From a virus (taxonomy: Duplodnaviria; Caudoviricetes), in the IMG/VR virus record IMGVR_UViG_3300033067_000132, positions 1-33,044 of that record: a stretch of 33,044 bases of DNA; one strand, written 5' to 3'. A program made the position numbers and the translations under genes. The notes beneath the pieces were generated by a model. It saw only the letters and a program-made list of their open reading frames with translations. It did no database searches and was not told the DNA's origin. Below are positions 1 to 33,044 of this stretch, one piece after another; position 1 is the first letter of the stretch; each line of letters opens with the position of its first letter.

Positions 1-541
1 CCATGTAAACAGACCCTGCATGGCCTTCATACAATCGCTCGTCATAGCCTTCTGTTGAACATTCATCCATTGCCTTAAGCATTTCTGGCGTTGCTTCTCT
101 TGGCATTAGTTTTAAGTTTTGCTCTTGCTCTGGCTGTGCCATTGGCAACCCGCCAGCCCTGTGCGCTGTATCTTCTGGCGACCACTTCTCACTTCGCCGC
201 ATACGAAACACGGCTTGTAGATTTGGGTCGTCCAACATGTCGCAGTCTTCACGCTCAGTCTCTGACTTGTAGCGCACTACACCAAACTCAGCCTCATGCA
301 CTAAGCCGCAGTCACAGCATTTCATCAGATACCCGCTAGGGTTTGGGCATACCCACTCAGACCAATCGTAGGGCTTGTCTACGTTGTGCGTAACGAACTC
401 AGGCTCCTGCTCTGGCTCTGCCAATGCTTCTTTTACCTTTTTAATGGCAAATTGGTATTCATCAGAATGGCCTAAGTAAGCGTCACCATGCTTTTCCAAC
501 GCCTCAAGCGCCAGCGTCAGTGCTTCTTTGTGTGTTGTCAT
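1..541 (-). CDS. Modular PEQEP-linker phage protein, partial (runs off left edge)
   Basis: Not in ORF track. ATG at 541 overlaps the upstream TGA (ATGA). The frame MTTHKEALTLALEALEKHG...ALAEPEQEP...CCDCGLVH...AQPEQEQNLKLMPREATPEMLKAM... stays open to position 1. Confidence 0.8.
   Translation of the reverse strand, partial: MTTHKEALTLALEALEKHGDAYLGHSDEYQFAIKKVKEALAEPEQEPEFVTHNVDKPYDWSEWVCPNPSGYLMKCCDCGLVHEAEFGVVRYKSETEREDCDMLDDPNLQAVFRMRRSEKWSPEDTAHRAGGLPMAQPEQEQNLKLMPREATPEMLKAMDECSTEGYDERLYEGHAGSVYM
121..417 (-). repeat. PEQEP-linker repeat copies at 121-136 and 400-417
   Basis: Plus strand GCTCTTGCTCTGGCTG and CAGGCTCCTGCTCTGGCT. Confidence 0.8.
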
Positions 542-789
542 AATTTGATGCACTCCATACCTTCCCACTTGCACACAGGATTTTCTTTGCACATGATGAC
601 AAATCCTTCAACTTCCCCATCGCCACCAACGCTTTGAATTTCATAACCATAGTCTCCAATCTGAATAATGACTGGAGCGTTTGGGTTAATCATGTCGTCT
701 ATGTTTCTGTCTTTCTGCGTTAGCCATACGTTTTCCGTATCAATCATGGCTTGCATAACGTCAATCATTGTTTGAGATTTAAAGTTCAT
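538..789 (-). CDS. Hypothetical protein (83 aa, MNFKSQTMID...)
   Basis: ATG at 789 is coupled to the upstream TAA (TAATG), so it is preferred over the TTG start at 891. Confidence 0.7.
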   Translation of the reverse strand: MNFKSQTMIDVMQAMIDTENVWLTQKDRNIDDMINPNAPVIIQIGDYGYEIQSVGGDGEVEGFVIMCKENPVCKWEGMECIKL

Positions 790-905
790 TACATCGGGCT
801 TTCTGGAATGTTTGAGCGTTGTTGTTGCGCGTATTCTTTGATTTGCTTGGGTGTCCAAGGAACTGCACCTGTTGCGGGTGGAAAAGGCCAATTAGTCAAT
901 GTCAT
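789..905 (-). CDS. Small hypothetical protein (38 aa, MTLTNWPFPPATGAVPW...)
   Basis: 3' part of track ORF 789..1028; fits the tightly packed operon. Confidence 0.55.
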   Translation of the reverse strand: MTLTNWPFPPATGAVPWTPKQIKEYAQQQRSNIPESPM

Positions 906-2964: not shown

Positions 2965-3697
2965 TGCCTCCAATTAGTCCACGGGTTAAGCCAGACATTA
3001 CTGTTTGAGTTGTCTGACCAGCTTTGCTTAAAGCCCTGTTGCGTTCATCAGGTTTAATCCAAGATGCCTCAAGACCTTGCGAACCACGCAAGCACCAGAT
3101 TTCCAAAAACTCGTTTAATGGAATACCAGCTTTTTGTGATTCAGACCTAGCGCCTTTAAGCACCGTCTCTGTCACAGATGCTTTTTTTGTTTTCCTGAGT
3201 TGCAACCAATCAGACCAAACTTGCTGGTCAACATCAAAAGGACAAGCAATGGCAATTGCTTTCTCTTTCTTTGTATTCTTTGAAGGTGAAGGTGAAGGTG
3301 ATGTGCTATCTGCCGAGCATTGCTCCGAGTATGCTTCGACTATGCTTGGAGCATTTTTATTACCCCAACGAGCCTGTGCGCCCTTCAAACCACGCTCTTT
3401 GTTGGCTTGCTTGTTGTGATTAGCTTTTGCCATCTCATTCTCAACACGAGGTTGAAACCATGCTCCATCTTGTATTTCAAAGAATGGCTCAAGCATAGTC
3501 CGAGCATTAGCCCAAGCATCAGGTGAAAGTTTTGTAATCTGGGCAAGGACTGCATCATTGTCAGGCGGCGCACCGCTTTTCCAATAGTCCATCAGCAAGA
3601 GCAAATAAGCCCCGTGTTGCTCAGTAGTCAGCCGTGAAGTGGCAGACAAATAATCCGCTATGTATAGCGGCATCCAAATATCGACTTTTGTAGCCAT
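2936..3697 (-). CDS. Phage replication initiator, DUF1376/YdaU (lambda O-like)
   Basis: N-terminal WMPLYIADYL..T..LTTEQHGAYLLLLMDYW, SPSPSP linker, C-terminal W.DW...RK.KK domain; GAGG SD before ATG 3697. Confidence 0.82.
   Translation of the reverse strand: MATKVDIWMPLYIADYLSATSRLTTEQHGAYLLLLMDYWKSGAPPDNDAVLAQITKLSPDAWANARTMLEPFFEIQDGAWFQPRVENEMAKANHNKQANKERGLKGAQARWGNKNAPSIVEAYSEQCSADSTSPSPSPSKNTKKEKAIAIACPFDVDQQVWSDWLQLRKTKKASVTETVLKGARSESQKAGIPLNEFLEIWCLRGSQGLEASWIKPDERNRALSKAGQTTQTVMSGLTRGLIGGNGNAKLLLK
3282..3520. repeat. Candidate replication origin: iteron-like 11-12 bp repeats inside the initiator gene
   Basis: GAGCATTGCTCC/GAGTATGCTTC/GACTATGCTTG/GAGCATT at 3315-3356. Oppositely oriented CAAGCATAGTC/CGAGCATTAGCC/CAAGCATC at 3490-3520. 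GAAGGT x3 at 3282-3299. Confidence 0.5.
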
Positions 3698-4561: not shown

Positions 4562-4762
4562 ATGAAACTCAACGAAACAACCCGCACCTACCCCCGCACG
4601 ATGCAAGAAGCCTATCCCAACACGGTTGATGCTATTGAAGCTCGTAACCGTTGGGAATGGCTCGAAGGCCATCGCTCAGATGCAGCACAACAAGCCGAGT
4701 TTTGGGTTTACATCACACTGGCGTTTGCCGCTGGTTTCTTAGTCTCTCACCTATTGGGTTAA
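4562..4762 (+). CDS. Small protein with C-terminal TM helix (MKLNETTRTYPRTMQEAYP...)
   Basis: AGGA SD before ATG 4562; hydrophobic C-terminus. Confidence 0.7.
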   Translation: MKLNETTRTYPRTMQEAYPNTVDAIEARNRWEWLEGHRSDAAQQAEFWVYITLAFAAGFLVSHLLG

Positions 4763-4764
4763 TC

Positions 4765-5346
4765 ATGAAAGTCTATCAAGCAATCAACGCTGTTCAAACT
4801 GAACTGGCAGCAATCGGCATCAGCAAGTCATCACACAACTCACAAGGCGCTGGATACAACTTCCGAGGCATTGATGCCGTCTACAACGTTTTATCCTCAA
4901 TCATGGCTAAAAATGGTCTTTGCATCATTCCTCGTATGCTTTCACGCTCATGCGAGGAACGCACAAGCAAATCTGGTAGCGCTTTGTTTTATGTGACTGT
5001 TGAGGCTGAGTTTGATTTGGTCAGCGCAGAAGACGGAACAAGGCACACGGCTCGGACATTTGGCGAGGCGATGGATTCAGGCGACAAAGCGACAAACAAG
5101 GCAATGTCAGCAGCTTATAAATATATGGCGTTCCAAACCTTTGCAATTCCAACTGAAGGCGACAACGATGCTGATGCTCATTCCCATGATGTAGCAGTAA
5201 AGAAGCCAAAGCTAGACGCAAAACGTCTGCAAGGCGCTATTGAGAAAATCCTGTCAGGTCAATACACAACAGTAAAACTGCTTGATACGTTTGACCTTAC
5301 TCAAGAGCAAATTGACACAGTAGATAAGGCGATTGCAAATGCTTAA
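4765..5346 (+). CDS. erf: ERF-family single-strand annealing recombinase
   Basis: GYNFRGIDAVYN and GEAMDSGDKATNKAMSAAYKY...F.IPTEGD motifs; ATG at 4765. Confidence 0.85.
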   Translation: MKVYQAINAVQTELAAIGISKSSHNSQGAGYNFRGIDAVYNVLSSIMAKNGLCIIPRMLSRSCEERTSKSGSALFYVTVEAEFDLVSAEDGTRHTARTFGEAMDSGDKATNKAMSAAYKYMAFQTFAIPTEGDNDADAHSHDVAVKKPKLDAKRLQGAIEKILSGQYTTVKLLDTFDLTQEQIDTVDKAIANA

Positions 5347-5965
5347 GATTCGCGCAAGCTCACTATCCGAGATAATGACCGACCCAAAAGGCAAGGATGA
5401 AACCTTGTCCGTAGGAGCCAAGACAGCTATTACTAAGCAAGCCAAAGAGTTTGTTTACGGCTATGACGAACACTTCTCTAGCAAGTACACGGAAAAAGGC
5501 ATCCTTGTTGAAGATCGTTCTATTGAGTTGCTCAACTCTGTGTTGTTTACGGACTTCAAAAAGAACACAGAGCGCAAAACAAATGAATGGCTAACTGGCG
5601 AGGCAGATATTGTTGCTGACCGCATCATTGACATTAAGTCGCCTTGGTCGCTGTCTACGTTCCCATGCCTGGCATCAGAAGGCGAAAACAAGACATACGA
5701 ATGGCAACTTCGTGGCTACATGATGCTTTGGGACTTGGATGAAGCACAGATTGCATATTGCCTTGTAAACACGCCTGACCACTTGGTTGGGTTTGAAAGC
5801 AAGGCTTTGCATCAAGTTGAGCATATTGCGCCCGAGCTTCGGGTTACGTTGCTTAACTACAAACGCGACAAAGCACTTGAAGACAAAATAAAATTCAAGG
5901 TTGACGAAGCGCGTAAGTTTTACGATTTGGTCGTAAAGCAAATTTCAGATGAACACTCTAAGTAA
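5339..5965 (+). CDS. YqaJ/lambda-exonuclease-like PD-(D/E)xK nuclease
   Basis: IRASSL, KG...E, GEAD, IIDIKS and YEWQLRGYMML motifs; adjacent to ERF. Confidence 0.82.
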   Translation: MLKIRASSLSEIMTDPKGKDETLSVGAKTAITKQAKEFVYGYDEHFSSKYTEKGILVEDRSIELLNSVLFTDFKKNTERKTNEWLTGEADIVADRIIDIKSPWSLSTFPCLASEGENKTYEWQLRGYMMLWDLDEAQIAYCLVNTPDHLVGFESKALHQVEHIAPELRVTLLNYKRDKALEDKIKFKVDEARKFYDLVVKQISDEHSK

Positions 5966-11214: not shown

Positions 11215-11607
11215 TTAATTTCCGAAGATTGCAACACTAATGTAAGCTGTGTCAGCAGAAGTGCCACTTGTTGTACACGCTAAAAACCGACAAGCCGTAG
11301 TTGTTGGAGCCGCTGAAGAATCGTTTAAAGCAATAATACGTGCGCCACTTACAGACGCTGTTGAAATAAACGAATAATTTGCATCACTAAGAGCTGTAGC
11401 AAAGTTAACCGTATAGTCACCAGTACCGTTATCGGTGATGCTAGACACGTTATAGCTTGAACGGATAGCCACTGTGCCAGTGCCATTAAAGTTCACCCAA
11501 GCCAAAGCATTGGTGGTCACACCGTTACTCTGAATTTTAATAACACCAGAGCCATCGGCAGTCTGGACTAAACCGTTTGTAGGGGATGCGTTGATTGTGG
11601 TTGTCAT
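11215..11607 (-). CDS. Tail fibre tip module B
   Basis: AWVNFNGTGTVAIRSSYNVSSITDNGTGDYTVNF domain; AGGTG SD before ATG 11607. Confidence 0.75.
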   Translation of the reverse strand: MTTTINASPTNGLVQTADGSGVIKIQSNGVTTNALAWVNFNGTGTVAIRSSYNVSSITDNGTGDYTVNFATALSDANYSFISTASVSGARIIALNDSSAAPTTTACRFLACTTSGTSADTAYISVAIFGN

Positions 11608-11618
11608 TTGTTCACCTA

Positions 11619-12026
11619 TTAACGGAATACAGAAACACAACAAAGATCAGCATCTTGATAGCTTCCAGCAGTATTTCTTACATCAACTTTTACTGAAGTT
11701 GTGCTGTATGTTGATCCAGACGATCCAGCCGATACTTGGCTAAAAAAACCGCCAGTTGAGCCGCTAATCGTACCTGCTGAAAAAGAAGTTGAGTAATTAG
11801 CATCAGGCATTGCAGTCGTAAAGTTCACTGTGTAATCGCCTGTCCCGTTATCCGTGATGCTTGACACATTAAACGATGCACGAATAGCAACAGTACCTGT
11901 ACCGTTGAAGTTCACCCAAGCACGACACAGCGTACCGATTTGAGTGCCGTTACCGTCTTTGAACGTGGGAGCCGTAGCCGCAGTGCTTGATTGCACCACA
12001 TCTGTTAAAACTGAGCCGTAAGCCAT
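11619..12026 (-). CDS. Tail fibre tip module A (paralog of B)
   Basis: AWVNFNGTGTVAIRASFNVSSITDNGTGDYTVNF domain. Confidence 0.75.
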   Translation of the reverse strand: MAYGSVLTDVVQSSTAATAPTFKDGNGTQIGTLCRAWVNFNGTGTVAIRASFNVSSITDNGTGDYTVNFTTAMPDANYSTSFSAGTISGSTGGFFSQVSAGSSGSTYSTTSVKVDVRNTAGSYQDADLCCVSVFR

Positions 12027-31973: not shown

Positions 31974-32125
31974 TTGGTCTCCAAAGGTAACTCAACGACA
32001 GGCAAAGCCAACATATTTTCTTTAGCGTACTCAAACCCAAGGTCGTATGCGTTTGACATTGCTGTGATTGTGTTTTCATCGCATCCAACGCCTCGCAGCA
32101 TTGAAATCATGTCTTCTTTGCTCAT
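31970..32125 (-). CDS. Hypothetical protein (51 aa, MSKEDMISMLRGVGCDENTI...)
   Basis: Not in track; AGGAG SD; coupled at both ends. Confidence 0.7.
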   Translation of the reverse strand: MSKEDMISMLRGVGCDENTITAMSNAYDLGFEYAKENMLALPVVELPLETK

Positions 32126-32445
32126 GTGTTTCTCCTTGCTCGGATAAATTCAGCCCTATTTCGCACCCATGCAATTGCGGTGCTCGGCTCCATGTCGGCA
32201 ATCATTTGCTCTGCCATATCATCAAGCACCTTTGCGCACGCTTCATTCTCAGCCCTGACTGCGGCTTCTCTTGATTCATGCAGTTCACGCATCACCTCAA
32301 TGACTGCCAGCTCATGCTTGAGCATGATGGCTTTAATCATTTCAATGGGCTTTTCAATCATTGCCATCGCAGCCGCTTTGTTTTGGTCGGTTTCGTTTTG
32401 GGCTTGAATGATTGCCTTCTTGTGTAATTCGCTCAGTGATTTCAT
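32122..32445 (-). CDS. Hypothetical protein (AENEACAK...IRAR motif)
   Basis: Track ORF; AAGGAG SD; ATGA coupling. Confidence 0.7.
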   Translation of the reverse strand: MKSLSELHKKAIIQAQNETDQNKAAAMAMIEKPIEMIKAIMLKHELAVIEVMRELHESREAAVRAENEACAKVLDDMAEQMIADMEPSTAIAWVRNRAEFIRARRNT

Positions 32446-33044
32446 GTGTTCTTCTCCTTGAGTTTGGCTTCAATGGCTCGGGCAAATGTATATAGCCGTG
32501 TGCCATAGGCGTTAACACCTTCAAGGATTGCGCCTATCTCCTCATCCGTCAGCGGCTTGCGCTGTGGTGGGGTGGTGTAGAGCTTGGCGTCTTGCGGGAT
32601 TGCAACAGGGCCAAGTACGGTCGTTACATGCACGCCATTCTCATTCACGTAAGCAGACCCAAAGTGAGCCACAGGCTCCTGCTCTGGCTGTAATGCTTTT
32701 GGTGATGTCGGCGACATTGATGTCGTCGAGTTAGGCTCTTGCTCTGGCTCTTTTGATTGAATTGAACCGTAAGGGCCACATAGCGCATATACAGCGTTTT
32801 GCACCAGCGCATCAGGGTCAAAGTCATTTTCTTTACCACAATTGGTTGCACCACGGATTGCGTAACGGACAGCAGACACAACAGCATCACAAAGTGCATG
32901 AGTCAGGATTGGCTTGCCAAGTTCGTTTGGTTCATCTGCCCCACACTCATACTGGCGTTCTGCGTACAGCCAATGGTCTTTTGGAAGCGGATATGACATA
33001 ACTGCAAACGCACTACCATCAGGCAAAACAGTTACAGGCTCCTG
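32442..33044 (-). CDS. Modular PEQEP-linker phage protein, partial (enters from right edge)
   Basis: Frame is open from 33044 (QEPVTVLPDGSAF...). It has two further PEQEP linkers and ends LYTTPPQRKPLTDEEI...FARAIEAKLKEKNT. Confidence 0.8.
   Translation of the reverse strand, partial: QEPVTVLPDGSAFAVMSYPLPKDHWLYAERQYECGADEPNELGKPILTHALCDAVVSAVRYAIRGATNCGKENDFDPDALVQNAVYALCGPYGSIQSKEPEQEPNSTTSMSPTSPKALQPEQEPVAHFGSAYVNENGVHVTTVLGPVAIPQDAKLYTTPPQRKPLTDEEIGAILEGVNAYGTRLYTFARAIEAKLKEKNT
32672..33044 (-). repeat. PEQEP-linker repeat copies at 32672-32690, 32733-32749 and truncated 33034-33044
   Basis: Plus strand CAGGCTCCTGCTCTGGCTG, AGGCTCTTGCTCTGGCT and ACAGGCTCCTG (at the window edge). Confidence 0.8.

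Follow-up and report, generated by a model that had tools for sequence, protein, structure and literature searches.

Modules joined in frame at DNA-conserved coding joints, and probably exchanged there, form a mosaic gene in a phage contig and its relatives

The window, by which is meant the whole stretch of DNA analysed (33,044 bases), is an entire phage contig that was opened within a gene built from modules joined in frame at joints conserved at the level of DNA. It is probable that these modules are exchanged by co-infecting phages through homologous recombination at the joints. This reading is drawn from the footprints that such exchange would leave, namely fixed codons, the location of breakpoints and variable module order; the recombinase that would act at the joints is putative.

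The gene content of the window comprises terminase, portal, capsid, lysis, ERF, exonuclease, NinB, HNH, methylase and replication genes. The two halves of the cassette gene are minus-strand open frames at both window ends, running from 541 to 1 and from 33044 to 32442. In coding order, they contain the following features.

416 to 541, minus strand: N-cap with the gene start (MTTHKEALTLALEALE...KVKEALAE), a variable loop between two conserved blocks
401 to 415, minus strand: joint J1, copy 1 (PEQEP), matching the J1 pattern
134 to 400, minus strand: CCDCGLVH module, present in 13 other family proteins and also a stand-alone gene elsewhere
119 to 133, minus strand: joint J1, copy 2 (PEQEQ), where the contigs of run X19 diverge into three distinct upstream partners
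1 to 118, minus strand, continuing into 188 bases absent from the window: REATPEML module, present in 10 other proteins
33036 to 33044, minus strand: joint J1, copy 3 (QEP), clipped by the window end and whole in the bridging contig
32748 to 33035, minus strand: PDGSAF module, also a stand-alone gene elsewhere
32733 to 32747, minus strand: joint J1, copy 4 (PEQEP), matching the J1 pattern
32688 to 32732, minus strand: mini-module of 15 codons (NSTTSMSPTSPKALQ), lying between two PEQEP copies
32673 to 32687, minus strand: joint J1, copy 5 (PEQEP), matching the J1 pattern
32577 to 32672, minus strand: VAHFG module of 32 residues, almost invariant, with the two joints on either side of it in relatives
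32559 to 32576, minus strand: joint J2 (TTPPQR), the same 18-mer as in 34 of 39 flank-independent copies
32442 to 32558, minus strand: C-cap (KPLTDEEI...FARAIEAKLKEKNT), a variable loop between two conserved blocks

The ATG of the gene, within the N-cap piece, overlaps the stop of the upstream gene, and the last codons of the C-cap contain an AAGGAG site ahead of the overlapping ATG of the next gene. The 16-base J1 pattern has six matches in the window at no more than three mismatches (four at no more than one) against 0.67 expected, a number reached in none of 100 shuffles. A first-pass annotation of this DNA had reported five J1 copies on the minus strand, in the coding frame and encoding PEQE(P/Q). 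This description is accurate: four copies are whole in the window, and the fifth, clipped at 33036-33044, is completed by a 1525-base contig of run X1 (depth 6.89), which may be the window's own source sample. Letters 1-491 of this contig correspond to 32554-33044 and letters 680-1525 to window positions 1-846, each with 0 differences; that the two matches belong to one record was deduced from their equal length and depth. Letters 482-504 match the linker, so that the fifth J1 copy is whole, and 188 bases separate the window ends. As 541 + 188 = 729 keeps the frame, the two halves form one gene provided that these 188 bases hold no stop, in which case the joined gene has approximately 443 codons and all five linkers. 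The modules named in the annotation were recovered wherever they were placed, with the exception that the mini-module, given there as 14 residues, has 15 codons, and 14 only if its last Q is counted as linker. No second copy of this mini-module was found, and a related contig of run X19 (joint 32689-32765) passes from the PDGSAF module straight to the next joint, with the mini-module absent. The invariant CDCGLVHE of the CCDCGLVH module might represent a metal site.

Several further features of the window were observed alongside the cassette gene. A short minus-strand frame at 772-900 carries a WPFPP...VPWTP motif, and in each of three runs bases 816-857 are covered by numerous contigs that are unrelated to one another and end loosely to the left and right, so that this too is a widely shared block. 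Some contigs run from the cassette gene's end into sequence past the next gene, which is skipped or replaced (joints 32121-32442 and 32145-32447); gene ends of the KEKNT and RARRNT types with ATGA overlaps may be joints at the level of genes. In the tail region, a 131-base direct repeat (75% identity; 11372-11502 and 11791-11921) lies in two adjoining genes, and a 28-base inverted repeat (3331-3358 and 3480-3507) within the replication-initiation gene is possibly part of an origin.

The cassette gene belongs to a very large family carried by freshwater phages. The J1 linker pattern is found at 121 or more loci of the viral collection, with approximately 660 estimated in all, some of the 121 being chance matches (such as those in the portal genes L011, L070 and L117), and at 123 of 130 pattern matches no open frame is longer than that of PEQEP. 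A second bait, the window motif coding for LYTTPPQR, identified 119 loci. The proteins share a plan in which an N-cap is followed by QPEQEPVAW, a variable module, LYTTPPQR, optional further modules and a C-cap, and in both caps a variable loop flanked by two conserved blocks is seen across the family. The first-pass annotation had set an N-cap and a C-cap beside the modules; cap pieces are themselves variable and swapped, and the C-cap loop of the window follows different modules in L001, L101 and P0149. From loci L001-L388, 259 family frames were obtained, of which 214 remained after the removal of near-duplicates, and the N-terminal half of the window gene was added to this set. Two or more family genes, often adjacent, occur in 23 of 231 loci (L046, L048, L152, L180, L376 and others). 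The proteins P0093 and L020 resemble fusions or splits of neighbouring genes at joints. A profile of 22 short members matched 35,129 representatives at 50% identity, a listed figure that may include distant or partial matches, 14,029 of them at 1e-10.

The family is unannotated. The halves of the window gene have no match in Pfam or PHROGs, and none of the 145 family proteins searched (the longest of the 214 non-redundant ones) reached the Pfam cut-off, there being two hits below it. Hits in PHROGs were obtained for 13 of 47 family proteins, all to entries of unknown function, and none of ten family proteins matched the PADLOC models, which cover defence systems only. In the ESM Atlas, the PDGSAF module had no usable hit, and a short family member (predicted pTM 0.28) fell among unnamed viral clusters only. 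AlphaFold models were of low confidence (pTM of 0.36 for PDGSAF and 0.33 for CCDCGLVH), and fold searches with that PDGSAF model found nothing usable (best E 0.003, unnamed; best Z 4.4). No description of this gene family was found in the literature searched, which was mostly open-access.

One family gene lies in a Betaproteobacteria MAG, a Rhodoferax protein (from a 5.49-Mb record) contains the VAHFG module in another context, and an Achromobacter protein found in the PDGSAF search contains one family module, which together suggest that the hosts are Burkholderiales. The linker pattern was found at 120 loci in 10 of the 64 parts of the prokaryote genomes, one of which is this MAG gene while the others look like chance matches; the J2 pattern occurs in none of 401 genomes of the MAG's order, and a plasmid search gave no match. 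The phage DSL-LC05, whose host is described as known by prediction only in the available part of its report (PMC10611076), also carries a cassette gene; its replication module differs and has no annotated ERF.

The joints identified are J1 (QPEQEPVAW), J2 (LYTTPPQR) and the cap blocks ALEAL, KEALA, GLT/PLT and AIEA. To avoid circularity, their codons were scored only in genes fetched by another bait, using copies with unrelated flanks. Among 51 PEQEP copies (thinned from 73 occurrences), CCA is used in 49, GAG in 48, CAG in 34 and CAA in 17, GAG in 50 and CCT in 38. A single 18-mer encodes TTPPQR in 34 of 39 copies (thinned from 54), giving a pairwise identity of 0.76 against 0.0008 by codon usage. 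The GTG of EPVAW is present in 50 of 50 copies, and EPVAW, KEALAQ, LALEAL, WVGLT and RAIEA are similarly codon-fixed, with some positions free. By comparison, codon sharing is only 0.41-0.50 for invariant peptides within modules, and when joints are set against module cores in the same gene pairs, the values for three modules are 0.78 vs 0.55, 0.72 vs 0.62 and 0.92 vs 0.72. Hence the earlier observation that the linker codons are nearly fixed beyond what the peptide requires is upheld, as they are far less variable than codons elsewhere. Near J2, ahead of the C-cap, there are 59 non-silent codon differences and 18 silent ones, which implies that it is the DNA sequence, not the peptide, that is maintained; at J1, silent differences are in excess (38 vs 30 non-silent), indicating that peptide constraint contributes there. 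The fixed codons could stem partly from recent common descent of the joints. It may be speculated that J1, with its resemblance to a ribosome-binding site and its invariant GTG, is the remnant of an old gene border at which the stop was lost and small genes were fused.

These joints exist in more than one dialect. A second pattern, EQPAQQEP, occurs at 68 loci and is mostly paired with TSPPA; proteins of this dialect contain PEQEP in one of 59 cases and TTPPQR in none of 59. Segments are shared between the first and second dialects at 88% identity or more in 10 gene pairs. As the joints are distinct and yet the segments are shared, this implies that joints change together within a pool while modules cross between pools. 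The E. coli Chi octamer occurs, in reverse-complement form, within the commonest J2 sequence of the second dialect (12 of the 20 copies counted, L513-L580), which may be chance; the Chi octamer is absent from the J2 of the first dialect and is not enriched in its genes.

Breakpoints were defined as positions at which a shared segment, of at least 75 bases with at least 92% identity, gives way to unrelated sequence, and were sought in 215 non-redundant genes. A total of 177 of the 244 breakpoints lie no more than 15 bases from J1 (78) or J2 (99), against a mean of 66.7 and a maximum of 91 in 10,000 random draws, and under two other thresholds the proportions at joints were 125 of 165 and 234 of 350. 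When the cap blocks, defined after inspection of the outliers, are added, 205 of 244 are within nine bases of any block, compared with 75.9 expected. It had been proposed in the first-pass annotation that breakpoints in relatives would fall at the linker, and this is what is seen. The view of PEQEP as the joint was right in that it is one joint, but incomplete, since the J2 TTPP sequence, which had been overlooked, accounts for more breakpoints and is more fixed. Because the alignments always run on through the shared joint, this clustering does not by itself distinguish homologous crossover from other ways of joining at domain boundaries.

The modules themselves occur in a great variety of arrangements. 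The PDGSAF module is present in 891 longer proteins; the 118 that could be parsed among the best 120 of these contain 86 upstream and 98 downstream contexts, and QEP immediately precedes the module in 75 of them. The VAHFG module was found in 76 proteins at 83-100% identity, the 75 parsed having 67 upstream and 69 downstream contexts, with EP directly ahead in 68 and a T-x-P motif behind in most. CCDCGLVH has eight upstream and nine downstream contexts among nine genes. Dividing the genes gave 671 segments in 443 families, 358 of them singletons, from which a Chao1 richness of approximately 1650 can be derived, a rough value that depends on the segment-cutting rule; the 'C-cap' segment cluster lumps unrelated loops through their shared end, and is not the count of one module. 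The VAHFG module (window 32577-32672; P0122-P0197) is almost unchanged across several joint dialects and the Rhodoferax protein, a near-invariance that suggests either that the module spread in a recent sweep or that it is a binding peptide under strong constraint.

In agreement with the first-pass expectation that module number and order vary, J1 is present zero to five times per gene (in 16, 114, 43, 7, 5 and 1 complete genes for 0, 1, 2, 3, 4 and 5 copies, respectively), and the architecture differs in all 186 of 186 complete genes. Mapping on whole proteins gave five reversed rows, which collapse to two module pairs found in both orders. In the pair with CCDCGLVH, REATPEML comes first in L278 and second in the window; in the pair with PDGSAF, it comes first in the window, P0084 and P0096 and second in P0032 and P0117. 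In L136 and L264, both flanks are 90-93% identical and the C-cap is shared, with a REATPEML-type module in one and a PDGSAF module in the other, and L552 and L553, of the second dialect, likewise have the same flanks around different modules. Most pairs with the same flanks carry the same gene, 23 of 24 in the first dialect and 11 of 12 in the second, many of these probably being one population resampled.

Alternative junctions at the linker, which the first-pass annotation had also envisaged, are present among the contigs of run X19. A contig of depth 303 spans the REATPEML module with one difference and stops in the linker at 123, upstream of which are found the CCDCGLVH module of the window (depth 16) and two unrelated loose ends. 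In run X2, 19 contigs carry other sequence between J1 and J2 (32582-32668). To judge from the assembled contigs, these junctions belong to different phages sharing a sample, and rearrangement within one genome is not proven by them. The idea of the linker as a recombination joint is thus supported in part, in that breakpoints cluster at it and its codons are fixed, with the exchange itself deduced.

Homologous exchange at the joints would proceed by crossover in a joint common to two different phages, replacing the stretch between two joints while keeping the frame; crossover between non-equivalent J1 copies would add, drop or reorder modules, and repeated exchange would homogenise the joints in a gene pool, in the manner of concerted evolution. 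The length of joint used might be 20-50 bases, and the enzyme is probably any available annealing protein or host recombinase rather than a dedicated one, in this phage perhaps the products of two adjoining genes:

4651 to 5346, plus strand: ERF-family single-strand annealing protein, a candidate driver in this phage and not a constant part of the system
5333 to 5965, plus strand: exonuclease adjoining ERF (phrog_5715)

The ERF and exonuclease pair, which the first-pass annotation suggested could drive the system, is not a fixed part of it, since ERF was found in only eight of 37 long carrier contigs. The same contigs contain an Enc34-type protein in two cases, RecT in one, a Sak4-like ATPase above the cut-off in two and Rad52 in none, such that any of the five annealing-protein families is above the cut-off in 13 of 37 carriers and in 11 of the 24 that are near-complete. 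Red-beta requires 23-27 matched bases, and the Erf/Exo of phage D3 is as efficient as Red, as given in the available part of one study (PMC3945230). Between unrelated copies of J1, the shared stretch has a median length of 13 exact or 19 near-identical bases, and for J2 the values are 21 and 23; stretches of at least 23 exact bases are common to 9% of the J1 pairs and to 36% for J2. That the exact matches are often below the efficient length counts against the homologous recombination reading, as does the frequency with which same-flank pairs carry the same gene, from which no exchange is observed inside one phage population. The J1 copies of the window gene share 10-18 exact bases with one another; exchange would thus be favoured between genomes whose joints match over long stretches, and deletion within a gene would be slow, which fits stable arrays.

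Clustering of breakpoints at domain borders is also predicted by rare illegitimate fusions among which selection keeps those at flexible proline-rich linkers, the shared DNA then reflecting recent descent of the linker. This explanation, which we regard as unlikely though not negligible, agrees with shared joint stretches often shorter than 23 bases, with the excess of silent over non-silent change at J1, and with the finding that about half of lambdoid mosaic borders lack flanking homology (PMC2327257, in the part available). However, joint codons are fixed even between genes with both flanks unrelated, joints resemble each other more closely than invariant module cores do when both are compared within one gene pair, differences at J2 are more often non-silent than silent, and joints shift together as dialects, pointing to homogenisation by exchange. 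The bounding of modules almost to the residue (EP ahead of VAHFG in 68 of 75) could alternatively indicate that joints are the targets of a dedicated site-specific recombinase from the host or a helper phage, comparable to attC and the integron integrase, and J1 can be drawn as an imperfect hairpin with a median folding z of -1.2 to -1.4 relative to synonymous recodings. This folding signal is weak and based on near-identical copies, however, and the two most variable J1 positions (CAR and CCN) sit in the stem of the drawn hairpin. Borders are formed by at least five different blocks in several dialects, a PHROGs scan of 45 ORFs or ORF halves of the window detected no tyrosine recombinase or integrase, and an integrase (PF00589) is found in only four of 37 carriers; a dedicated enzyme is consequently improbable.

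It is similarly hard to credit, and we consider it distinctly improbable, that the joint DNA is an expression signal, such as an internal ribosome-binding site with a GTG start, an RNA structure or a protein-binding site, with shuffling as a by-product. J1 does read AGGAG-CCT-GTG, with GTG in 50 of 50 copies, PDGSAF and CCDCGLVH modules exist as stand-alone genes too, and the terminal KEKNT block overlaps the ribosome-binding site of the following gene, but the spacing from AGGAG to GTG is just three bases and CAA breaks AGGAG in 17 of 51 copies. Furthermore, three of four J1 copies in the window are not followed by GTG or ATG, the copy at the window end is followed by GTA, and J2 and the cap blocks are as fixed yet have no such site. 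Mosaicism produced by assembly, through the mis-joining of co-occurring phages at shared joints or modules, might be suspected from the tangled graphs of run X2, in which contig depth is approximately 50,000-67,000 over the C-cap and 15-73 within modules, and from the break of the window contig itself inside the cassette gene. Such an artefact is very improbable, as one 1525-base contig repeats the array of the window with 0 differences, 34 of 36 same-flank pairs from separate assemblies have the same gene, VAHFG stands in another context in a protein of the 5.49-Mb Rhodoferax record, and the joints are mostly shorter than assembly words.

The chances appear evenly balanced that the product of the gene is a dispensable, beads-on-a-string host-interaction protein under diversifying selection, a role suggested by the gene's position amid replication and nin-like genes, by the fact that its modules also exist on their own, and by its diversity. 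More tentatively, and with less than even confidence, it may be proposed that thousands of freshwater phages share integrase-free, in-frame cassettes in which joints are selected as crossover sites, dialects are exchange pools, and custom multi-module host-interaction proteins are drawn from more than 1000 modules. If true, the system would amount to a combinatorial library of proteins occurring in nature and separate from integrons, shufflons and diversity-generating retroelements. The family in any case accounts for a very large block of unannotated viral proteins (35,129 representatives) as combinations of shared parts, which clustering of whole proteins cannot classify, and provides an inventory of small phage domains. 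It also touches the old question of whether phage mosaicism arises from short conserved linkers or from random joining followed by selection, for which coding joints allow a direct test, as silent recoding leaves the protein unchanged.

The modular theory and the 'linker' sequences of lambdoid phages are reportedly due to Susskind and Botstein in 1978 and Clark et al. in 2001. Such linkers sit at gene borders, and the order of the genome is fixed. Exchange via short conserved flanking sequences is an existing proposal for lambdoid mosaicism, and in the available part of that account the linkers, like the joints described here, are short sequences common to many phages that flank unrelated modules, with exchange by phage recombinases proposed (PMC2327257). 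Homology breaks within genes have been noted in P22-like phages (PMC2629481, in the part available). Two features of the lambdoid model are found in the cassette gene, namely a DNA-conserved sequence between unrelated modules and the coincidence of breakpoints with conserved sequence. Its gene-border, fixed-order form is not, as the joints are coding, in frame, intragenic and recurrent, vary in number and order, with two module pairs in both orders, and have dialects.

Integron arrays gain, lose and reorder modules at repeated sites, and the cassette gene resembles them in this respect. By contrast, it has no IntI-type integrase, attC-like conserved hairpin or promoter-proximal site, and its units are in-frame parts of a gene; no attC-like hairpin with conserved pairing was detected at the joints, as the median z relative to synonymous recodings ranged from -0.3 to -1.4 and the drawn stem of J1 is broken at its variable positions. 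In the PeSL cassettes of the T4-type phages RB49 and phi1, whole genes of a hyperplastic region are shuffled without an integrase, through recombination at short elements that recur there (PMC2839356, in the part available). PeSLs, however, are described there as non-coding promoter-terminator cassettes between genes that yield mini-circles, whereas the cassette joints are translated within one polypeptide and no circles were observed in the assembled contigs; a non-coding promoter and stem-loop between genes was not found at the joints, where, as noted above, the longest reading frame is that of PEQEP in 123 of 130 cases. The Ea22/Ead and DUF551 proteins of lambda and Stx phages are also mosaic accessory proteins with exchangeable domains, but Ea22 has a constant coiled-coil N-terminal half and a single variable C-terminal domain, and the available text of that work names no DNA-conserved joints (10.1101/2023.09.01.555870). 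None of the Pfam families Ead/Ea22, DUF551 and DUF550 matched any of 145 family proteins or the window halves; in the same comparison, five of 47 family proteins had weak phrog_60 hits, and DUF551 occurs in one of the best 120 proteins with a PDGSAF module, showing that the module pools touch. Work on domain mosaicism in phage proteins has concluded, in the part available, that fragment shuffling is ongoing and that more is to be expected in accessory proteins of unknown function; it uses protein profiles and mostly annotated functions, and the word 'linker' is absent from its main text (PMC10684548). Hence the cassette gene is not an integron, a PeSL or a member of the Ead/DUF551 group, and constitutes an in-frame form, within a single gene, of the lambdoid linker model already known.
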